NCBI GenBank assembly: GCA_002793915.1
Contig: PFEF01000003.1
Span: 18,854-82,853, forward strand
Origin: Candidatus Ryanbacteria bacterium CG10_big_fil_rev_8_21_14_0_10_43_42
GTDB taxonomy: Bacteria; Patescibacteriota; Minisyncoccia; Ryanbacterales; 2-02-FULL-48-12
Reading direction: 5' to 3'
Length of the DNA: 64,000 nt
Numbering within the stretch: the stretch's first letter is position 1; each line of letters starts with the position of its first letter. The position numbers were made by a program, and so were the translations under genes. Of this stretch, positions 28,289 to 62,975 are shown piece after piece. Under the pieces are notes generated by a model. It was not told the origin of the DNA. It worked only from the letters and a program-made list of their open reading frames with translations, and did no database searches.

Positions 28289-28518
28289 CGGAGGCGGGCA
28301 GCGGGGCGGGAGAGCGTACGATTTTGGTCAGAGCCACCACACGTTCCGCGCGGCACATTGTCAGCGATAGTATTGGTATAAAGCCAAAAAATTGCTAAAA
28401 TGTAGTTAGCGGAACATCCACAGGTCAAAACTAGCTGCTTTTTTCTGAAAAACCATATAGAATTAAGTTATGGGCGTTGGCCGTCCGGCGCGCCAAGCCC
28501 AAAATTAAGCTAATTTTT

Positions 28519-29535
28519 ATGAGCAATAAAACTTACAAAACTTTAGACCTGTTCGCCGGTATCGGAGGAATCCGAATGGGCTTTGAACGCGCCGGATTTG
28601 AAACAGTTTTTTCCAACGACTTTGACCCTTACTGCAAGCCAACCTACGATCTGAATTACAAAACGGCGCAGCTCGCTGTTGGCGACATTCAAAAGATAAA
28701 AAGTTCGTCTCTGCCTGCTTTTGATATTTTACTCGGCGGATTTCCTTGTCAGCCGTTTTCTGTTGCGGGTTACCGGCGCGGATTTCTTGATACAGGCAGA
28801 GGCGATTTATTTTTTGAAATTGTAAGGATTCTGCGGGACAAAAAGCCGTCCGCGTTTTTGCTTGAAAATGTAAAAAATCTAAAATCACACGACAAGGGCA
28901 AAACATTCAAAATTATTTCGGACGCGCTTGCCGACCTCGGCTATCATGTCAAAGTGAAAGTTCTAAACAGCATGGAATACGGGAATGTCCCGCAGAATCG
29001 CGAGCGTGTTTATATCGCCGGTTTCAAATCAAAAAAAGCGCATGATGTTTTTGAATTTCCGGAGCAAACACCGCTTACAAAAAGTATTTCCGATATTTTG
29101 GAGGAGTCGGTGGACAGTAAATATTACTACAACGACAGCACGCTTTATAAGCAACTCAAAGAAGCGATAAAATCACCGAATACAGTTTATCAATGGAGGC
29201 GAGCTTATGTGCGCGAGAATAAAAGCGGTGTTTGTCCGACACTTACCGCAAATATGGGAATGGGCGGACACAATGTTCCGCTTGTCAAAGATAAAAAAGG
29301 AATTCGGAAACTTACACCTCGGGAATGCGCGCGTTTGCAGGGCTTTCCCGAAAGTTATAAACTTCCGAAAGATTTGCCGGACACCAAGCTGTACAAACAG
29401 TTTGGTAATTCTGTCACGGTTTCCGTGGTAGAGAGGGTCGCAAGGCAGATGATGAAAGCCCTGCAAACAAACAATAATTATGTTTATAGAGAGCCAGTCA
29501 AAAGAACAACGAGAGTATTACGAACGGCTGCTTAA
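28519..29535 (+). CDS. DNA (cytosine-5)-methyltransferase (Dcm-type)
   Basis: Motif I LDLFAGIGGIRMGF, motif IV GGFPCQPFSVAG, motif VI ENVKNL, motif VIII/X region. Start set at the Met at 28519. The 3' end overlaps the next ORF by 56 nt. Confidence 0.9.
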   Translation: MSNKTYKTLDLFAGIGGIRMGFERAGFETVFSNDFDPYCKPTYDLNYKTAQLAVGDIQKIKSSSLPAFDILLGGFPCQPFSVAGYRRGFLDTGRGDLFFEIVRILRDKKPSAFLLENVKNLKSHDKGKTFKIISDALADLGYHVKVKVLNSMEYGNVPQNRERVYIAGFKSKKAHDVFEFPEQTPLTKSISDILEESVDSKYYYNDSTLYKQLKEAIKSPNTVYQWRRAYVRENKSGVCPTLTANMGMGGHNVPLVKDKKGIRKLTPRECARLQGFPESYKLPKDLPDTKLYKQFGNSVTVSVVERVARQMMKALQTNNNYVYREPVKRTTRVLRTAA

Positions 29536-30646
29536 AGCGGTCGGTTCACTCTCAAAATTATTTTCCGAAGCGCCGGAGCCGTATATTGCATACCGCGCAG
29601 CGGAAAATTTGTTTTGCAAGGCGTTTGAAGCCGAAAACCTTTCGCGTTCGGATGCTTCCGCTGATGCCTCAAAGAATAAAGTCGGTTTCGGAATAAAAAC
29701 ATTTTTGCACAAGAACGGAAAGTCGTTTGAAAAAATTGCCGAATTCAACAGCGACCACTCGCTTTTTCGCGCACTCGGCACCGAAGAAAAAATCAGAAAA
29801 ATTGCAGAGCTTAGAAATGAGCGCATAGAAACGACAAAGCGCATTTTCGGGCTTGAACAAATTATTTACCACTGTATAACGCGGCAGGTCGGAAAAATTC
29901 TTGTCTACGAAACTCCGGCTCCGCTAATTAAAATTGACGAAATAAAAGACCTGAAAGCGAACGGAAACACAATCCAGTTTTCCGACCCGTCCGCAGAGTA
30001 TTCTTTCAATGTTGCAAAAAGCACCCTGTATAAGCGGTTTATTACGCCCGAAAATGTGCTTCTTGAAGTTCCGGTTAGAATTCTTGAGGACCCGTTTGAC
30101 GAGATTGAAAAACTTATAACAGAAGCGGGACTAATTTTTGCTCCGATAAAAGTCCAGCCACATGTATTTCTTCCGCTGTATTCTACGCGGGGAGGAGATA
30201 AAAAGGTTCCTGAAAAAAGCGGACTTAATCAGTGGAACGCGAGTGGCCGTCCCCGCGATCCGAACGAGATTTATATTCCGATACCGGCATGGCTACACAG
30301 AAAATTTCCGAACTTCTTTCCTCCCCGCGACCAAGCATTTGAACTCACTTTGCCCGACAGGGCGACAATGAGCGCAAAAGTTTGCCAAGACAACAGCAAG
30401 GCGTTAATGAGCAATCCAAACTCTGCTCTGGGCAAATGGCTTTTGCGCGATGTTCTCAATCTTTCGGAGCGGGAACTGCTGACTTATGACAAACTTCAGG
30501 CAATCGGGCTTGATACTGTCGTTATCTACAAGACTGATAATCATACTTATGACATTGATTTTACGCGCATTGGGTCATACGAAAAGTTTTTGAATGAAAA
30601 CGGTGAATCCGGCGAGGAGGAAATCTCTGACGATGAGGAGGAATAA
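29480..30646 (+). CDS. putative type II restriction endonuclease (assigned by position between the C5-MTase and Vsr; catalytic motif not verified)
   Basis: 388-aa ORF with no recognisable enzymatic motif by eye. Acidic C-terminal tail (GESGEEEISDDEEE). Confidence 0.45.
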   Translation: MFIESQSKEQREYYERLLKAVGSLSKLFSEAPEPYIAYRAAENLFCKAFEAENLSRSDASADASKNKVGFGIKTFLHKNGKSFEKIAEFNSDHSLFRALGTEEKIRKIAELRNERIETTKRIFGLEQIIYHCITRQVGKILVYETPAPLIKIDEIKDLKANGNTIQFSDPSAEYSFNVAKSTLYKRFITPENVLLEVPVRILEDPFDEIEKLITEAGLIFAPIKVQPHVFLPLYSTRGGDKKVPEKSGLNQWNASGRPRDPNEIYIPIPAWLHRKFPNFFPPRDQAFELTLPDRATMSAKVCQDNSKALMSNPNSALGKWLLRDVLNLSERELLTYDKLQAIGLDTVVIYKTDNHTYDIDFTRIGSYEKFLNENGESGEEEISDDEEE

Positions 30647-30651
30647 TCGCT

Positions 30652-31050
30652 ATGGACAAAATAACGAGGGAACAACGGAGCCGAAATATGGCGGCTATTC
30701 GGAGCAGAGGAAATCAGACTACGGAAATTGCTTTTTCAAAACTGCTCCGAGCAAACAAAATTACAGGCTGGCGCAGACATAGCCGCCAAGTTTTCGGCGT
30801 TCCCGATTTTATTTTTCAGAAGGAAAAGGTGGCGATTTTTATAGACGGCTGCTTTTGGCACGGGTGTCCGCGGTGTAAAACACAACCAAAAACAAATACA
30901 AAGTATTGGAAACAAAAAATCGCCAACAATCAAAAAAGAGACAAGCAGGTCAAAAAACAACTTATTCGGGACGGGTGGAAAGTTTTTCGGTTTTGGGAGC
31001 ACGAGGTAAAAAAGAATCCGAATCGTGTTATGGACAAGATTGTTTTTTGA
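30652..31050 (+). CDS. vsr: very short patch repair endonuclease Vsr
   Basis: 132 aa. FIDGCFWHGC motif, conserved N-terminal TREQRSRNM and KLL...GWR regions of Vsr. Confidence 0.9.
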   Translation: MDKITREQRSRNMAAIRSRGNQTTEIAFSKLLRANKITGWRRHSRQVFGVPDFIFQKEKVAIFIDGCFWHGCPRCKTQPKTNTKYWKQKIANNQKRDKQVKKQLIRDGWKVFRFWEHEVKKNPNRVMDKIVF

Positions 31051-31112
31051 CCTTTCCGCCGCAAATTTAGGCGAACAGGCAAAAAGGAAGGGGATTGGGG
31101 GGAAGGAATTTT

Positions 31113-31130
31113 TGCCCGCCCGAGCGTCAG
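31113..31130. repeat. GC-rich motif TGCCCGCCCGAGCGTCAG (right copy of the direct repeat flanking the R-M/Vsr cassette)
   Basis: 17/18 identity with 28272-28288 after a 1-nt gap. Sits in a GC-rich patch (GGGGATTGGGGGGAAGG) just after the vsr stop. Confidence 0.5.
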
Positions 31131-31322
31131 ATTTCGTTTCTGCCACGCGAAGCGCGGCAATCGGTCAGATGTTTCGTTCAAAAAATGTTCGAGCAGAGTC
31201 GTATAATTCCACCAGATAGCCCCTCAAAAATCAAAAAGTTTTGTGTTGGTGTATTTATACAACCACGCTCGAACGCATTTTACCAAGAATTAAAAATACC
31301 CGTAAAAAATCCTTTACAAACC

Positions 31323-32723
31323 CTATGCGTTTTCCTGAGCATCAAGAAACACTCCCATCCTGTTCCATTTTTGCCACCTAAGCTCCGACTTGGTGACGAT
31401 TTTTTTTATGCTTTTTAAAAGGGCTTGGTACTCTACCAAATCCATAAAATAGAATAACAGCCACGCAGTTGGTGCCAACAACACCAGATTTCGATGAAAT
31501 TTTACCTTCGGATCAGAAATTATTTGAAGTACTATTACTCCCGTTAGCAGTGTAATGACAAATGCGAGTGGTACAAAGTCATTTGTATAAAACGTATATG
31601 TATAAAAGATTATGAGCAGAATACCCTCGCATAACAGTAAGAGTTCCGCAAAAAGAGCTATCGGAAGAATAAGAAAGCTTAAGTAAGATTTATGCGTCTT
31701 TCTTAAACTAAAAAAAAGACTTCGGTGTTTCCAAAATGTGAGCAACCGACCAAGCTTCCAACGAAGGCGTTGCTTACACAAACTCATAAAATCTGATGGT
31801 CCCTCAGTAAACACATACGCATCGGATGCGTAACGAACATGATACCCGAAAGCTTGTAATCGTGTAGAAATTTCAATATCTTCAGTAATCATATTTACAT
31901 CAAAATTACCGATTTCGGCGAACACGCTTTTTCTGTATGCGGCCGCGGCACCTCCAACTATATACACAGCGTTAAACAGTGAGTCTGCTCGTTTAAAATA
32001 AAAGCCGTAAAGATACTCGAGTTGTTGTATTAAACAAATTGGATTTGATCGATTACCAATGACAACGTTTCCAGCAACAGATGCAACGCGCATATCGGCA
32101 AAGTGTTTTACAATATTCTTAATGGCATTTTTATCCATAATGCTATCTGCATCAACGGTCATAACGATCTCATTAACTGCAACTTCGAGCGCTTTATTTA
32201 ATGCTCGTGCCTTGCCCCCATTTTTAATTTTCAGATAACGAATTTGTACCCCCGAATAAAGATTCTCTTTTTGACACTTGTTCAAAAAATCTGTCACTGT
32301 TTTGTGTGTATTGTCTGTTGATCCGTCATTTACCACCACAAGTTCCATCTTTGGATATTTTGTGTTTAATACGGACTTTATCGTCTTCATAATCCCAACC
32401 TCTTCATTCCATGCAGGAATTATAACCGAAACGCTTGGGAAAAAGTTTTCTTGCCTTCGTATCGATCTGGCGTGTTCAACTACAGAATAAAAAGGTGCTA
32501 TAAGTAACTGTATAAAATATTTTAGGATAATTGGGGCAAATAAAAGCAATACTAAAAATCGAATCGACTCAAACCCTTCAAGGGGTACAAAATCTTTTGA
32601 CCACGCAAAATAAAACACCAGTATTGTTGGTATATAAAGAAATAAAACAAACGACACAACAACTAAGGATTGTTTAAAATTACGGAAACTCATCATATAG
32701 CTTAAGTTACAAATATGACCCAT
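31323..32723 (-). CDS. processive family-2 glycosyltransferase (PgaC/IcaA/NodC-like polysaccharide synthase), membrane protein
   Basis: GT-A fold signature SVIIPAWNEE...VVNDGSTDNT, DAD (TVDADSIM), KQRLRWKLG (QxxRW). Transmembrane helices at both ends. 466 aa. Confidence 0.8.
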   Translation of the reverse strand: MGHICNLSYMMSFRNFKQSLVVVSFVLFLYIPTILVFYFAWSKDFVPLEGFESIRFLVLLLFAPIILKYFIQLLIAPFYSVVEHARSIRRQENFFPSVSVIIPAWNEEVGIMKTIKSVLNTKYPKMELVVVNDGSTDNTHKTVTDFLNKCQKENLYSGVQIRYLKIKNGGKARALNKALEVAVNEIVMTVDADSIMDKNAIKNIVKHFADMRVASVAGNVVIGNRSNPICLIQQLEYLYGFYFKRADSLFNAVYIVGGAAAAYRKSVFAEIGNFDVNMITEDIEISTRLQAFGYHVRYASDAYVFTEGPSDFMSLCKQRLRWKLGRLLTFWKHRSLFFSLRKTHKSYLSFLILPIALFAELLLLCEGILLIIFYTYTFYTNDFVPLAFVITLLTGVIVLQIISDPKVKFHRNLVLLAPTAWLLFYFMDLVEYQALLKSIKKIVTKSELRWQKWNRMGVFLDAQENA

Positions 32724-32936
32724 TTAATTACTTTTGTCAATAAATATTTATAAATCGCCGAATCAGATCTGGATTAAATAAGTGCAGGTTCCGGCTTCTT
32801 CTCTGCATCTTACCCGGACAATTTGTCGTTCAAATGTTTTTACGCATTCCATTAAACCAATTATATTCGTGTTTTTCAAGCATAAAATCCAACGATCTTA
32901 ACGATTGTATGAGTTTGACTCCCATCCGTAGCACAC

Positions 32937-32965
32937 TTTACAATACTATCTTCATATAGTATCAT
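32937..32965 (+). promoter_or_regulatory. putative promoter (TTTACA-17-TATCAT) with an embedded 7-bp-arm palindrome ATACTAT-n6-ATAGTAT (operator-like)
   Basis: The hexamers have ideal spacing 17-23 nt upstream of the small ORF at 32982. The palindrome occupies the spacer. Confidence 0.35.
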
Positions 32966-32981
32966 ACAAAAAATTGCCCCC

Positions 32982-33179
32982 ATGGAGGATGCGATGCAAC
33001 CAAAATCAGGGAACCGGAAAAGCGCATGTACTGCGCCTAAACATCCACGGCGTTTAATACGCCATTGGCCGGATAGGGCTCATAAGGTTAGGGTTCACGT
33101 CAGTAATCTACCCCCTGACCTTCGAGATGGCCAGCGTACGTTATGGAAGGAGAGATGCGGCGATGTTGTGTTTGTCTAA
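32982..33179 (+). CDS. small basic hypothetical protein (65 aa)
   Basis: ORF between the promoter/palindrome and the next small gene. An alternative start ATGCAACC is preceded by GGAGGA. Arg/Lys/His-rich. Coding status uncertain. Confidence 0.3.
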   Translation: MEDAMQPKSGNRKSACTAPKHPRRLIRHWPDRAHKVRVHVSNLPPDLRDGQRTLWKERCGDVVFV

Positions 33180-33203
33180 ATCATTTTAAGAAGGAGGAAA
33201 ATT

Positions 33204-33422
33204 GTGGCCGATAAAATGACGCGACGTCAAGTCATTCAGATGGCTTATGTTGCACCTCTCGTGCTGACTTTACCAGTAACCCCGTCATTTGCCATGACGG
33301 GGTCGGGGGCTCCCCATTCCCGGAGACGTCCCCACATAAACAGACCACGTATAACTGGGAGAAGGAATGTGACAAAAATAGTCACTCAATCACATCCCGG
33401 TAGCCGAGTAGACAGAGAGTAG
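33204..33422 (+). CDS. small protein (~70 aa) with twin-arginine-like N-terminal hydrophobic region
   Basis: Perfect AAGGAGG SD upstream. A rho-independent terminator abuts the stop. The peptide is MTRRQVIQMAYVAPLVLTLPVTPSFA|MTG... followed by a strongly basic 40-aa tail. Confidence 0.45.
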   Translation: MADKMTRRQVIQMAYVAPLVLTLPVTPSFAMTGSGAPHSRRRPHINRPRITGRRNVTKIVTQSHPGSRVDRE

Positions 33423-33448
33423 GACGTTCCCAGGAACGTCCTTTTTTA
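33421..33448 (+). terminator. rho-independent terminator (AGGACGTTCC-cag-GAACGTCCT + TTTTTT)
   Basis: 9-10 bp GC-containing stem plus T6 immediately after the small-gene stop. Abuts the folD stop codon (33446-33448), which lies inside its T-run. Confidence 0.6.
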
Positions 33449-34285
33449 TACGTTTATACCACACAATATAAGTAAATTTTTAAATACATTTGCAACCACA
33501 ATAGGTCCTACGCCGCCGGGCACGGGCGTTATGAGAGCGGCTTTCTTTTTTACCGAATCAAAATCCATATCCCCCCGTAACACTCCCTGCACCGGTGTTG
33601 TGCCTACATCAATGGCGCACACTCCTTCTTGTACCATATCTCCCGTAATAATCCCCGGAGATCCCGCACCTGTAACAATAATATCTGCATTTTTTGTGTA
33701 ATATATGCTGTCTTTCGTATACTTATTTATGGTTGTGATGGTGGCGCCTTCACGCAAAAACCATTCGCTAACCAATTTCCCCACCAGCATACCAGACCCT
33801 ACAACAACAACACGCTTGTCCCGCAATACATACGACGCATCATGGCGCAATAAAATTTCTTTTACCGCTCCCACTACGGGCGGCAGAATAATTGATGACC
33901 CCACATTAAAATCTCCAATGCTCCGGGCAGATAACATATCGACGTCTTTCTCCGGCGTAACAGCATTGAGTACTTTCTGTACGTTTCCTACACTATCCGC
34001 AAGAGGCAACTGTACAATAACGCCATTATTTTCCGGTACATGCACAAGTTCTGAAACGCGATCGCGCAAAGAACGTGCCGACATTGCATTCAGTACCTCA
34101 TCATACACCCGCACATCTACGCCTATTTTTTTGCCAAATTCCTCTTTTTTGCGCACAAATGTCTTTGTTGCCGGATCATGCGTCGTAAGAACAATAGCTA
34201 GTCGTAATTTTTTACGGGACATCTGAATCTTTTCCCGCAGAGTGTCCGCAATATCTGCCGATATTTTTTTGCCGTCAATTATCAT
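33446..34285 (-). CDS. folD: bifunctional methylenetetrahydrofolate dehydrogenase/cyclohydrolase FolD
   Basis: 279 aa. Conserved VVGSGMLVGK NADP-binding region and PVPGGVGP motif. Confidence 0.9.
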   Translation of the reverse strand: MIIDGKKISADIADTLREKIQMSRKKLRLAIVLTTHDPATKTFVRKKEEFGKKIGVDVRVYDEVLNAMSARSLRDRVSELVHVPENNGVIVQLPLADSVGNVQKVLNAVTPEKDVDMLSARSIGDFNVGSSIILPPVVGAVKEILLRHDASYVLRDKRVVVVGSGMLVGKLVSEWFLREGATITTINKYTKDSIYYTKNADIIVTGAGSPGIITGDMVQEGVCAIDVGTTPVQGVLRGDMDFDSVKKKAALITPVPGGVGPIVVANVFKNLLILCGINV

Positions 34286-57592: not shown

Positions 57593-58072
57593 ATGATTAC
57601 TCTTGCTGTAAATCGGAGAGCGCGATTCGACTTTGATATCCTGGAAACATTCGAAGCGGGATTGTCTTTGCATGGATATGAAGTAAAGTCTGTAAAAATG
57701 GGGCGTGCGAGTATTGGAGGAGCGCATGCCATTATTCGCGGCGAAGAAGCCTATATTATAGGCATGCAAATACCGCCCTACCAGCCGGATAATACCCCTG
57801 ATACATACGATCCGTCTCGTACGAAGAAGCTTATTCTAAAAAAAGCGGAAATTCGTTCTCTTATAGGAAAAATTATCCAAAAAGGCTTGACTTTAACCCC
57901 CATTCGAGTGTATACTAAGCGTGGTCTTGTAAAGATGGAGCTCGGTCTTGCACGCGGAAAAAAGAAAGAAGATAAACGCCAAAAAATCAAAGAACGAGAT
58001 GCGAAACGCAAAATTGAGCGGACTCTTAAAACAAGAATGCAGATAACAGGGGGACGTCGGGATTCGACGTAG
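57593..58072 (+). CDS. smpB: SsrA-binding protein SmpB
   Basis: 159 aa. Conserved RRARFDF..ETFEAG...GYEVKSVK...IPPY and a basic C-terminal tail. The stop (58070-58072) lies 23 nt inside the predicted tmRNA 5' end. Confidence 0.9.
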   Translation: MITLAVNRRARFDFDILETFEAGLSLHGYEVKSVKMGRASIGGAHAIIRGEEAYIIGMQIPPYQPDNTPDTYDPSRTKKLILKKAEIRSLIGKIIQKGLTLTPIRVYTKRGLVKMELGLARGKKKEDKRQKIKERDAKRKIERTLKTRMQITGGRRDST

Positions 58073-58415
58073 TATCCCGGTACATATACTAATCAGGCAG
58101 AGCGCAACCTCTTAAAACTACGAAATAGATAAGTGCAAACTTATTCAAAAAAGCGTTCGCACAGCCAGCAATGGCGTTGGCGTAACGCTTTCCGGGGTTC
58201 GATCTTGCTCTTTAGCAAGACATCCCGGACATCGATAAGATTCACGTCCGTACGATCTTATTTCGGTGTTATATCATCGGACTCGATGATTCCGACTGCT
58301 TGATACGAATCATGACATAAATCAGGCACCCCTTTTGTGCTTCGGCACAGAATAATACCTGTAACAGTTAGATATGTGCCCTCTACGGACGGGAGTTCAA
58401 CTCTCCCCGTCTCCA
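58050..58415 (+). ncRNA. ssrA: tmRNA (ssrA)
   Basis: 5' GGGGACGUCGGGAUUCGACG (tRNA-like acceptor/D). 3' GGACGGGAGUUCAACUCUCCCCGUCUCCA (T-arm plus acceptor pairing with the 5' end, discriminator A). Internal tag reading frame 58135-58185, GCAAAC...GCGTTGGCGTAA, encodes ANLFKKAFAQPAMALA followed by a stop. Confidence 0.85.
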
Positions 58416-58504
58416 CAAGTTTTGCCACCTTTTGCCAAGAGCAAAATAGTTGCAAAACTTAATACACTACACCCGCAAAGTTTAGTGTATACATTGTTTA
58501 AGTT

Positions 58505-59923: not shown

Positions 59924-61288
59924 ATGGCAGAAGATCCCGTCACGTACATATATCTGATCGTTGTGTTGATTATCGGTCTCCGCTCACTGTACACGTTCGC
60001 AACATTCAGCAGTACTTTTTGGTGGCTCAAACGCCAACGCGTCAAAACTGTGGAAAATACAGATAAACATTTTGTTGTCGTGATCCCGGTGTTGCGCGAA
60101 CAACGGGTGCTTCGGGAAACTGTCGAGTGGTTTTTAAGTCTCGACTATCCACGCGATAAGCTCACCATTGCCATAGTTACAACAGAACAAGAGTACACGA
60201 CCAGAGCAGACGGACAGACAACCGTTGAGCTAGCGGCATTGCTTCATGATGAATACGGACATGCTGTCTGGCACATACACTATCCTGAAACGAGAGGAGA
60301 GAAAGTCCATCAACTAAATTATGCGATCAGCGTGATCTTGGAAGAAGACGCGCTGGCAGACAGTGAGATGTTCATTGCACTGTATGACGCAGATTCCAGA
60401 CCGCATCCGCAAACGTTAAAATGGGTGTCTACGTTATCAGTTGCCAATCGTCGTCAGCAGATTTTGCAGCAATCGGCCATTTTTCTGCAAAACTTCAGCG
60501 ACATGAAGTCAAGAAATGGTTTTATTGTTGCGAAGCTGTTGCAGGCGAACGCCATTCTGCAAACGCGATGGACGTTAGCGCATGAAATTCCCCGTATCCT
60601 TCGACAAGGTTACGCATTACGCAGGTGGAATCGACGATTGTTTCTGTCTCACTGTGTAGGACATGGTCTTTTTCTTCGGAAAGATGTCATGCGAGAGTTG
60701 CGGCGACTACCAACAGAAACATTGACCGAAGACCTCTTTATGGGATTCGTCTTGTCGCTCTTAAGAGAGCCGATTCAGCTTGTGCCTGTGTTTGAATCTG
60801 CCGACATGCCGTATTCTTTGAAATCTGCATTGTTGCAGAAATACGTATGGTTCTATGGCCCGATGGAGCACAGAACCTATGCGAGCGTTTTTCTGCAAAC
60901 CAATCCGGAAAGAGCGCCGAAGTGGCTAGTAAATTTGTTTGCCGTGAGGGGGTTAATACCCGCGGCAGCTTGGCTCACTTCAGGGTGGATGGTGCTCTTT
61001 GTGATTGGATTTACGGCATTTTCCGGAACAACAGGGACGATAATACTTTCAGCGAGTACGCTCATCGCGTATCTAAGCACCTTTGGGCTTACGATACAGC
61101 GGTATGCACTACTCAATGAGATCACTGGAAGACGTGAGGTAGTACGGACAGGAGAAGGGATATTGGTTTTTCTTTTCCTTATCCCGATTTTTGTTCTGCA
61201 TAGTTTGCCTCCGCTTCTATCGGTGACAACCAAGATCCGGTCACTCGTGACCAGCATCAGACCATTTAAACCCAAAACTGAGAGGTGA
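59924..61288 (+). CDS. processive family-2 glycosyltransferase (PgaC/IcaA-like synthase), membrane protein
   Basis: GT-A signature FVVVIPVLREQ, DAD (LYDADSRPHP), QTRW (QxxRW) in AILQTRWTLAHEI. N-terminal transmembrane helix and about 4 C-terminal transmembrane helices. AAGGAG SD 7 nt upstream. Confidence 0.75.
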   Translation: MAEDPVTYIYLIVVLIIGLRSLYTFATFSSTFWWLKRQRVKTVENTDKHFVVVIPVLREQRVLRETVEWFLSLDYPRDKLTIAIVTTEQEYTTRADGQTTVELAALLHDEYGHAVWHIHYPETRGEKVHQLNYAISVILEEDALADSEMFIALYDADSRPHPQTLKWVSTLSVANRRQQILQQSAIFLQNFSDMKSRNGFIVAKLLQANAILQTRWTLAHEIPRILRQGYALRRWNRRLFLSHCVGHGLFLRKDVMRELRRLPTETLTEDLFMGFVLSLLREPIQLVPVFESADMPYSLKSALLQKYVWFYGPMEHRTYASVFLQTNPERAPKWLVNLFAVRGLIPAAAWLTSGWMVLFVIGFTAFSGTTGTIILSASTLIAYLSTFGLTIQRYALLNEITGRREVVRTGEGILVFLFLIPIFVLHSLPPLLSVTTKIRSLVTSIRPFKPKTER

Positions 61289-61291
61289 CGG

Positions 61292-62284
61292 ATGGAAGAA
61301 CGACTGCATCGAACATTGAGAGAGGTGATGCTAAATCACAATAATGACTACGGGTTCGACGTACACGCGACGCTTCTTCAAAGCCCTGATGTTCCAAACC
61401 TTAGCATCGTCATTCCGTATTATGAGAGCAAGCACATCACCCTTGTAATACGCTACCTCTACACGGGGATAGTAAAGGTTCAGCAAGAACACCCCGAGTG
61501 GCAGTTTGAGGTTATCGTGATCGACGACGGATCGATGAATCGCGCGGATAGAATTTTTAACCCTCAAGAGTACCACAATCTTGCTGTGACAACGCTCCAA
61601 AGTAATCGCGGCAGAACCGAGGCTCGCAACGTAGGTTTGCGACAAGCTCGGTTTCCTGTGGTGCTGTTCATGGATGCTGATATTATCGTGAGCGATGACG
61701 TAATCCTTAACCATTTGAAGGTGCAGGTAGCCGAAGGGATTGCGGGGCGATGCATTACAGTGGGTTTTTTTGCCACTGTTGCGCCGGCCGACCCATTCCT
61801 TACTCAACCACTTACGAATAATGCGATACGGAGCAAGCTCAACGATTTCAGACTCTCCTGCGTATACCAGTCATCATGGATTGGTTGTGAGGAAGATAAA
61901 CAATTCATAGGAAGGATGTTTGAGATAGTTCGGGAGACTAACGGCTTTAGAAACTGGCCAATTGGCTCATTTTTTGGCCCGTGGATACTGTCGAATATGG
62001 TTCTCGGCGGATTCTTTATGGTAGACAGAGAAGCCGCGTTCGAGGTGAACGGCTTCGACCGTTCTTTTGTGGGCTACGGCTTCACGGAAACGAGTTTGCC
62101 GACCAAGCTCATTGCGCGATACAGTCATTACGTCGTGCCAGTTATCGAAGGTGTATGTCTGCACATCGACGACGAAAGTGAGTGGCCGTCCCGAAGTGAG
62201 AAAAATGCGCTGTTTCGGGAGAAGCACGCGCAATACTTCAACCGCTATCTTGAACTAACCTGTGAGGAGGCCATTCATGGATAG
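61292..62284 (+). CDS. family-2 glycosyltransferase (soluble GT-A type)
   Basis: LSIVIPYYES...VIVIDDGSMN...TEARNVGLRQA...LFMDADIIV. GAGAGGTGA SD upstream. Confidence 0.8.
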   Translation: MEERLHRTLREVMLNHNNDYGFDVHATLLQSPDVPNLSIVIPYYESKHITLVIRYLYTGIVKVQQEHPEWQFEVIVIDDGSMNRADRIFNPQEYHNLAVTTLQSNRGRTEARNVGLRQARFPVVLFMDADIIVSDDVILNHLKVQVAEGIAGRCITVGFFATVAPADPFLTQPLTNNAIRSKLNDFRLSCVYQSSWIGCEEDKQFIGRMFEIVRETNGFRNWPIGSFFGPWILSNMVLGGFFMVDREAAFEVNGFDRSFVGYGFTETSLPTKLIARYSHYVVPVIEGVCLHIDDESEWPSRSEKNALFREKHAQYFNRYLELTCEEAIHG

Positions 62285-62975
62285 ATTAAATCTTGTGTTC
62301 CACCAAATATTGGACATTGAAGAGAAGCGCAGATCAGTGTACGACATGGTCGAAGAATCGGCGATTAAGATCCTCGAAACCGTCTTAGTTTTGTTGCACG
62401 GTCGCGGAATCGCGCTACGCGTATTCCTCGATGATGGCTATAGCAGACAATTCGGTTTTGCGCGCGTGCTTCAAGAACGGCTCGGCTTGCTCGCCGTCAT
62501 AGGGATCGCCACGGATGATGTCGGCGTAAAAGGATACCTCACGCGGAATCAAGTTCACGTATTATCCTCAAGCGGACAACGTATTGCTTCGCATGGGGTA
62601 TCTCACGCGGCGCTTGGCAAGTATGACAATGATACGGTAATGGAAACACCATCGGGAGGAATATATCGCAATATGCCAAAAGGAAGGATTGAGCTTTTGT
62701 CCGAAGCGGAAGTGCGCTATCAGGTTGTTGAGTCGCACCGTGAATTACAACGGTACGGCGTGTCAGTATCGGATTTCATTTATCCGTATGGCGTATATAA
62801 TCGAACTATACGGAATATCGTTGAGAACTCGAATCTGTACACTACCGCACATACGTGCGACATAGTACTTGAAACGGAACATTCTGACCTATTTCTCATT
62901 CCTCGGCTAGTGATAGACAATTCCTTGCCGGCGGATCAGTGGATCGAAAAGATACGCACATTACTAGGGGGATAG
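62277..62975 (+). CDS. polysaccharide deacetylase (NodB homology / carbohydrate esterase family 4)
   Basis: FLDDGY (TFDDG motif 1), IASHGVSHAAL (H-S-x-x-H motif 2), YPYG region. Start set at MDRLN (62277) with GAGGAGG SD; the ORF-track start is 62262. Overlaps the previous gene by 8 nt. Confidence 0.75.
   Translation: MDRLNLVFHQILDIEEKRRSVYDMVEESAIKILETVLVLLHGRGIALRVFLDDGYSRQFGFARVLQERLGLLAVIGIATDDVGVKGYLTRNQVHVLSSSGQRIASHGVSHAALGKYDNDTVMETPSGGIYRNMPKGRIELLSEAEVRYQVVESHRELQRYGVSVSDFIYPYGVYNRTIRNIVENSNLYTTAHTCDIVLETEHSDLFLIPRLVIDNSLPADQWIEKIRTLLGG

Follow-up and report, generated by a model that had tools for sequence, protein, structure and literature searches.

Results

A plus-strand peptide gene between two minus-strand genes

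We analysed a 64,000-nt stretch of contig PFEF01000003.1 (the window) from the genome of a Candidatus Ryanbacteria bacterium, a member of the Parcubacteria in the candidate phyla radiation. The genes for a membrane GT2 glycosyltransferase (31323-32723) and for folD (33446-34285), both on the minus strand, leave a gap at 32724-33445, bordered by the GT2 start at 32723 and the folD stop codon at 33446-33448. A sequence-only reading had described this gap, at about 720 bp, as a self-contained small-gene module with two small open reading frames, and every sequence feature that it listed is present where it was placed. Here we describe the second of the two open reading frames (ORFs), ORF2 (33204-33422, plus strand, 72 residues, GTG start). 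Judged by its sequence relatives, ORF2 is a real gene: it encodes a putative pre-peptide with a leader resembling twin-arginine translocation (Tat) signals, and belongs to a small-peptide family whose usual setting looks like a cassette of peptide-tailoring genes. The window copy stands alone. The first frame, ORF1 (32982-33179, plus strand), encodes a basic product of 65 residues, or of 61 residues if read from the ATG at 32994.

The G+C content reaches 46-59% across 32950-33400, the central part that had been noted for it, against 26-41% in the flanks; the mean for genes of the window is 44.8%. A strong Shine-Dalgarno site (GAAGGAGG, 33190-33197, plus strand) lies 6 nt 5' of the ORF2 start codon at 33204. 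Its AAGGAGG core occurs 11 times on both strands of the window, and two of the occurrences besides that of ORF2 precede long ORFs (189 and 217 residues). The shorter GGAGG precedes ORFs of at least 100 residues at 16 sites, from which it follows that the genome uses Shine-Dalgarno sites. The predicted intrinsic terminator (33421-33447, plus strand) consists of a 9-pair stem, AGGACGTTC / GAACGTCCT, with the loop CCAG (hairpin 33421-33442) and a run of six T. It begins within the ORF2 stop codon and finishes within the folD stop codon. Because the T-run is present on the plus strand only, the terminator is oriented to end the ORF2 transcript, and this orientation, with its abutment on the ORF2 stop codon, fits a plus-strand unit ending there.

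The candidate promoter of the ORF2 transcript, TTTACA-17-TATCAT (32937-32965, plus strand), matches at 10 of 12 positions. An alternative site of equal score, TTGACT-18-TACAAT (32915-32944, plus strand), overlaps it, and there are no promoter-like sites between 32966 and ORF2. Such sites are not enriched in the region (7, against 4.2 +/- 2.2 in shuffled sequences). The tRNA genes of the same genome are preceded by comparable -35/-10 hexamer pairs, which makes TTTACA-17-TATCAT plausible as a promoter, though within chance. The spacer and the -10 hexamer of this site are spanned by a perfect palindrome with 7-bp arms, ATACTAT-N6-ATAGTAT (32943-32962). The window has about one palindrome with arms of this length per 820 bp, and the AT-rich 258 bp upstream would contain one or more with a probability of about 0.2. 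The promoter-like site and the palindrome of the sequence-only reading both exist, but neither exceeds chance expectation and the operator role given to the palindrome has no evidence behind it; the palindrome is most likely a chance occurrence.

ORF2 belongs to a family of small peptides with a conserved leader

The ORF2 product carries the motif TRRQVIQ, a hydrophobic stretch, the predicted cleavage site SFA|M and an Arg-rich tail of 42 residues with 9 Arg. The leader comprises residues 1-30 (33204-33293) and includes T6-R7-R8, Y15, P18, L21-T22-L23, P27 and F29-A30. The pair G33-S34 follows just past it (Ser codon 33303-33305), within the basic tail of residues 31-72.

A word-indexed search of 5.8 billion proteins returned ORF2 as its own only match. 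This result was misleading: an exhaustive phmmer search of 1.84 billion representative proteins recovered eight small relatives of 50-69 residues (P0125 and P0127-P0133), with E-values from 1e-5 to 7e-4 and identities of 48-62% across residues 1-55. Three long matches from the same search are repeat artefacts and not relatives. Scanning of metagenomes with the motif Y[VT]AP[LV][IV]LTL, taken from an alignment of four sequences, produced 39 loci. The peptide ORFs of these loci have in common about 35 N-terminal residues that follow the pattern [ST]RRxF[VLI]KKAAY[VT]AP[VL]ILTL[KAP]AxP[SA]FAxxGS, and their tails are unrelated. The tails are of low complexity and contain KDPKD repeats, Gly/Asn/Pro-rich motifs or Arg/His-rich runs, and in two members a helical-looking tail of about 100 residues is present. 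From 40 sequences we define the family as peptides of about 50-150 residues that carry the leader close to the N-terminus, followed by a tail that is hypervariable, charged and disordered.

A hidden Markov model (HMM) of the family built without ORF2 scores ORF2 at 56 bits (E 2.4e-15). It has no other match in the window and none in 89 loci from candidate-phylum bacteria. Five positions are invariant in 32 sequences (R8, P18, T22, L23 and S34) and five more are near-invariant (R7, Y15, L21, A30 and G33). ORF2 keeps all of them and also fits the family in its size and in the position of its leader. The closest relative is P0125, with 50% identity over 56 residues including the tail (BLASTP, E 1e-14). 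The tail of ORF2 can be aligned, in part, to that of P0125 only (PHINRPRITGRR in ORF2, PRVNRPRRNTGR in P0125).

The family loci range from 41 to 67% G+C and show no similarity to the window at the DNA level by blastn, and the conservation therefore lies at the level of the protein. Neither Pfam nor NCBIfam holds a model for the peptide family, a plasmid collection contained no members, and in the open-access papers searched we found no description of the family, or of the cassette outside lasso-peptide clusters. The family thus appears to be undescribed.

A subgroup of loci (L106-L110, L109 included, and L119, L120, L126 and L134) has a second motif in the tail, GNNGVGNGxDPQPPGNPxxNDGxGTGPGxPGN. 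No cassette genes adjoin the peptide genes of this subgroup, though most of its contigs are short.

The ORF2 region folds as RNA with a z-score of -3.4 and contains a perfect 10-bp hairpin at 33279-33303 (plus strand), ACCCCGTCAT / ATGACGGGGT with the loop TTGCC. The hairpin extends over codons T26-S34, over the predicted site of cleavage and over the codon of the invariant Ser. It is not conserved in the family: it is absent from the 32 other members, and the mean z-score over 33 members is -0.07.

The relatives lie in a putative peptide-tailoring cassette

The relatives form 30 distinct groups. In 18 of them the flanks contain at least one of three types of cassette gene, encoding a PqqD-like protein, an HPr-kinase-related protein or an NTP_transf_5 protein. 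Four groups have no cassette gene despite at least 2 kb of sequence on both sides, and the remaining 8 are on contigs too short to judge. In 11 of the 18 groups PqqD ends 2-53 nt upstream of the peptide gene on the same strand, and in most of these 11 a kinase-like gene begins 35-201 nt downstream of it. Usually a PqqD-family protein comes first, then the peptide gene and then a P-loop protein of about 280 residues, all on one strand and often with NTP_transf_5 adjoining. The stand-alone members have no conserved partner genes in common.

Pfam recognises PqqD and NTP_transf_5 at the relatives' loci and gives a weak ScmC match beside the peptide gene. Of the named families, HprK-related kinase A (TIGR04352) comes closest to the P-loop proteins, with 63-81 bits where the cut-off is 200; ScmC is weaker. 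For the PqqD neighbours, the closest are the PqqD chaperones of lasso peptides and PqqD_rel_X, both just short of their cut-offs (34.1 bits for PqqD_rel_X, cut-off 35). Since these scores fall below the NCBIfam cut-offs, we regard the neighbours as a related but distinct set. Sugar-nucleotide genes also recur: three groups have UDP-glucose dehydrogenase, and GlmS-like and GMPPB-like genes occur as well. A lasso cyclase of the asparagine-synthetase-like type and a B2 protease were found neither in the window nor in the flanks of the inspected cassette loci.

The cassette resembles known systems in which a RiPP recognition element (RRE) takes part in the tailoring of peptides that are synthesized ribosomally and then modified post-translationally (RiPPs). 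In lasso-peptide tailoring, a Ser of the precursor receives a phosphate from an HPr-kinase homologue; for pseudomycoidin, a nucleotidyltransferase then adds hexose to this phosphate (PMC8498205). The lasso sets, PadeK of paeninodin and PsmK and PsmN of pseudomycoidin with a PqqD-type B1 chaperone, comprise the same three protein types that adjoin the family peptides, namely a PqqD-family RRE, an HprK-related P-loop protein and NTP_transf_5. They differ in that lasso clusters possess the cyclase and the B2 protease, neither of which was seen in the flanks examined at the family loci, and in that the family precursors have a Tat-signal-like leader rather than a lasso leader; the window copy has no lasso-type tailoring enzyme within about 74 kb. 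The best-scoring named family for both neighbours is the 'HPr-rel-A system' (TIGR04352 HprK_rel_A and TIGR04353 PqqD_rel_X), with all scores under the curated cut-offs, and NCBIfam has no model of a peptide substrate that matches the family. A precedent for a precursor bearing a signal peptide is provided by the DUF2282 peptides, RiPP precursors with DUF2063 RRE proteins (PMC12710340). There, as proposed for the present family, the N-terminus of the peptide is an export signal and the cluster encodes an RRE-type partner. The signal is of the Sec type in DUF2282 peptides and Tat-like in the family, the enzymes differ and the sequences are unrelated. Taken together, the family's usual setting resembles a tailoring cassette of the RiPP type, as a variant of the peptide-tailoring systems already known to depend on an RRE.

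RiPP clusters commonly hold several precursor genes. At four cassette loci we observed second, more divergent copies of the leader (L115, 6333-6416; L111, 7785-7865; L128, 2099-2182; L135, 4554-4622). A gene for adenylylsulfate (APS) kinase lies near the peptide gene at one cassette locus and one stand-alone locus (L094, 592-1239, and L130, 8583-9299); it could hint at sulfation or be a coincidence.

The leader resembles a Tat signal

The leader of the family resembles a twin-arginine signal. Generic Tat signals (TIGR01409, PF10518) and the TIGR02811 proteins are similar to it in the [ST]RRxF#KK n-region, the moderately hydrophobic (h-) region and the AxA-type end. In ORF2, an h-region of 13 residues is followed by S-F-A, to be compared with the consensus [ST]-R-R-x-hydrophobic-hydrophobic-K and an AxA-type site. 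Eight of 32 members weakly match TIGR01409, seven match TIGR02811 and five match PF10518, all below threshold. The TIGR02811 'formate dehydrogenase region TAT target' proteins are, like the family, small and consist mostly of a Tat signal, and their context is a redox enzyme, in contrast to the peptide-tailoring cassette of the family. A further difference is that the h-region of the family (Y..P..LTL) is far better conserved than in generic Tat signals, and that Gly-Ser follows it.

The window copy is isolated at a synteny break

In contrast to most of its relatives, ORF2 is not accompanied by the cassette. Searches with cassette proteins detected no homologue by tblastn across the 64 kb of the window, the 10 kb that follow it held none either, and a PqqD HMM had no match in any frame of 32651-33480. 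The window copy is thus a stand-alone, or orphan, member of the peptide family, with the cassette absent within about 74 kb.

Five independent assemblies are 100% identical to the window across the junctions of the module, over up to 12.2 kb, and the region is therefore not a chimera. The FolD of the window is identical to a protein assigned to Candidatus Ryanbacteria bacterium CG10_big_fil_rev. The block leuS, sua5, glyA, folD is conserved in the three closest relatives by FolD (identities of 78, 73 and 61%). The DNA past folD differs in each of these three genomes and bears no similarity to the module, which therefore sits at a synteny break. The genes that relatives carry downstream of folD (219 and 164 residues) have left no remnants in the module. 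At 80 loci found through FolD in candidate-phylum and other genomes the module could not be traced by tblastn, nhmmer or blastn.

The G+C content of ORF2 is 52%, against 44.8% in host genes, and its codon score is in the lowest 1%. From the synteny break, the G+C content and the codons, it seems that the peptide gene was probably acquired horizontally without its enzymes.

Immediately upstream of the GT2 gene is a restriction-modification island (28477-31050) with a C5 DNA methylase, an NgoFVII-type endonuclease of 388 residues and the very-short-patch repair nuclease Vsr. The stretch containing this island is probably a horizontally acquired variable region. The stretch from the vsr stop codon to the 3' end of the GT2 gene (31050-31250) has a G+C content of 52-55% and contains only short overlapping ORFs.

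ORF1 is unlikely to be a gene

The sequence-only reading had seen two small ORFs of a small-gene module in the gap. The family HMM bears out ORF2 as a gene, whereas for ORF1 neither a homologue nor a coding signal nor a confident fold was found. Among 5.8 billion proteins, ORF1 matched only itself in a word-indexed, not exhaustive, search, and it has no match in 48 family loci or in PADLOC, PHROGs, PDB, Pfam and NCBIfam. The homology check that had been proposed for both products thus yielded a family for ORF2, by exhaustive search, and a self-match for ORF1. The codon score of ORF1 is -0.09, without frame preference; real genes score 0.28 +/- 0.12 and spurious ORFs -0.03 +/- 0.12. AlphaFold2 predicts no confident fold, with a mean predicted local distance difference test score (pLDDT) of 52, and the RNA fold of the stretch is not unusual (z-score +0.8).

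ORF1 occupies the position held by PqqD in other loci. We rejected the idea that it is a degenerate PqqD, for which the PqqD HMM with all filters off had no match in six frames. ORF1 and ORF2 are in one frame, with a single TAA (33177-33179) and eight sense codons, 24 nt, between them, and one read-through or reversion of this TAA would give a product of 146 residues. That the two are one gene split by the TAA was also rejected: the family has no such N-terminal extensions and ORF1 has no homologue. We consider it rather likely that ORF1 is not a functional protein. Most likely it is part of a 5' leader of about 230 nt of the ORF2 mRNA, either untranslated or incidentally translated.

Other features of the window

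The best promoter-like site on the minus strand, TTGACA-17-CATATT (32740-32712), overlaps the annotated GT2 start at 32723; translation may actually begin at the ATG at 32696, nine codons further downstream. At 59924-62975, genes for two more GT2 glycosyltransferases and for a polysaccharide deacetylase follow one another and form a PgaC/PgaB-like set; with the GT2 gene at 31323-32723 counted, the window is rich in polysaccharide-synthesis genes. The usual pairing of smpB with the tmRNA gene is seen at 57593-58418, where the tmRNA gene (Rfam RF00023, 91 bits) comes directly after smpB, and the window also has five tRNA genes.

Discussion

On balance, we think it probable that the gap between the GT2 gene and folD holds a single-gene transcription unit, in which ORF2 is a lone, horizontally acquired member of a cassette-linked family of pre-peptides with a Tat-like leader. 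ORF2 is probably still expressed, since its invariant residues are intact, its Shine-Dalgarno site is strong and ideally spaced, and it has its own terminator. By analogy with lasso-peptide tailoring, the PqqD-like chaperone of the other loci would hold the leader while a kinase and then a nucleotidyltransferase decorate a Ser, for which the invariant Ser34 is the best candidate; the Tat/Sec-like signal would export the product and be cut after FA. In the window, ORF2 would be expressed from the upstream promoter-like site. The twin-arginine-type leader would direct its product, whether unmodified or modified in trans, to export or membrane insertion, and a cut after Ala30 would then free a basic peptide of about 42 residues. 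Of the roles that the sequence-only reading had suggested, that of a bacteriocin-like peptide or small secreted effector is supported by the membership of ORF2 in a family with a Tat-like leader that is usually found inside a RiPP-like cassette.

Several observations weigh against this interpretation. ORF2 itself matches no Tat-signal model (TIGR01409, PF10518) even at an E-value of 10, and its motif T-R-R-Q-V-I-Q has Q where K is usual. TatA and TatC were not found in the 64 kb with E. coli and B. subtilis queries, and the absence of both the cassette and the Tat components concerns about 74 kb of the genome only. The chemistry ascribed to the cassette is deduced from family matches below threshold; one of the kinase-like proteins (L095, 280 residues) has no sequence relative in PDB, and the tails of the family rarely end in Ser, unlike the substrates of the lasso kinases. 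All available copies of the window locus are identical, so that there is no ratio of nonsynonymous to synonymous substitutions (dN/dS) and selection on this copy is not measurable. The codons of ORF2 are atypical and its tail scores higher in another frame, which would fit a decaying relic as well. As for ORF1, its internal ATG at 32994 has a GGAGG 5 nt upstream, and distant relatives could escape a word-indexed search.

A more far-reaching version of the proposal, which we regard as rather unlikely, is that the family represents an undescribed class of RiPP whose Tat-type signal is at once the leader that PqqD binds. PqqD would hold the signal in the way that Tat proofreading chaperones do, and the HprK-related kinase and NTP_transf_5 would phospho-glycosylate or nucleotidylate the invariant Ser, just past the cleavage site, before export. 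The Ryanbacteria copy, divergent from the membrane GT2 gene, would be a captured one. It would function either with no cassette or by means of enzymes whose genes lie elsewhere, and its product might, for instance, be a basic peptide that is secreted and acts on the host cell of an episymbiont-type bacterium.

ORF2 might instead be a dead relic, a recently transferred fragment of a foreign cassette that is non-functional and simply undecayed, with its promoter, Shine-Dalgarno site and terminator carried over or fortuitous. There is a case for this in the lack of partner enzymes within about 74 kb, in the atypical codons and a G+C content above the host average, in the synteny break beside a restriction-modification island, and in the upstream 200 bp, which have a similar G+C content without coding signal, as eroded donor DNA would. 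Against it, ORF2 is full length with all invariant and near-invariant residues intact, its Shine-Dalgarno site is ideally spaced, and its terminator abuts the stop codon and has a T-run on the plus strand only. Moreover, at least four other groups of the family stand alone within long flanks, which makes this a normal state of the family. We therefore hold this explanation to be improbable.

It is less probable still that the ORF2 product is neither cleaved nor exported and is a small membrane-anchored protein with its N-terminus inside, the conserved leader serving as a transmembrane anchor or an interaction helix. The conservation of the hydrophobic stretch AYVAPLVLTLPV exceeds that of generic signal peptides, the relative P0128 carries a second hydrophobic segment at its C-terminus, and the lack of any match between ORF2 and the Tat-signal models points in the same direction. 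But the segment is short, proline-rich and only moderately hydrophobic, like the h-regions of Tat signals, and a PxFA motif of the AxA type stands next to it in nearly all members. A quarter of the members weakly match Tat-signal models, and the adjoining PqqD chaperone argues that the conserved part is a bound leader.

The other role suggested by the sequence-only reading, an autoregulated bicistronic pair (toxin-antitoxin or regulator and effector) with ORF1 binding the palindrome in its own promoter, is very unlikely. Its attraction lies in the tandem arrangement of the two ORFs, 24 nt apart with GGAGG ahead of each, in the perfect 7-bp-arm palindrome within the promoter spacer and in the basic character of ORF1. 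Against these stand the lack of a homologue of ORF1 in the word-indexed search and of a coding signal in it, its pLDDT of 52, and its absence beside the other family members, whose upstream neighbour is PqqD. The palindrome is within chance (P about 0.2), and ORF2 is a peptide of the secreted type with a signal-peptide-like leader rather than a known toxin or antitoxin fold. The PDB search was empty, and known toxin, antitoxin and defence families gave no significant match to either ORF in Pfam, NCBIfam, PADLOC or PHROGs.

A structured non-coding RNA of about 475 nt (32966-33447) with incidental ORFs is hardly tenable, in spite of a G+C content above the flanks and z-scores of -3.7 for the whole transcript and -3.4 for the ORF2 part with its perfect 10-bp hairpin, because Rfam 15 has no match at gathering thresholds and only chance-level ones at E-values up to 10, ORF2 is conserved as protein and not as DNA, its hairpin is not conserved in the family and the structure of the 5' half is not unusual (z-score +0.8). 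We also rejected an RNase P-like reading of GAGGAAAA...ACAGACCAC, made by eye, for its short spacing and because no model matches.

The lone pre-peptide that we favour turns an anonymous 'intergenic' stretch, in which ORF2 was apparently skipped by the NCBI annotation, into a gene, and exposes a small-peptide family missed by gene callers and curated libraries. It also illustrates that a word-indexed homology search can label a peptide an orphan where an exhaustive search recovers a family. In candidate-phylum bacteria, with their tiny genomes and dependence on hosts, an acquired gene for a secreted peptide would be a candidate interaction factor. The window copy taken alone is a modest curiosity. 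The tight linkage of its relatives with a PqqD chaperone, an HPr-kinase-like protein and a nucleotidyltransferase suggests that peptide tailoring may follow a new export-coupled route, and the family with its cassette is a candidate for such a pathway of peptide modification.

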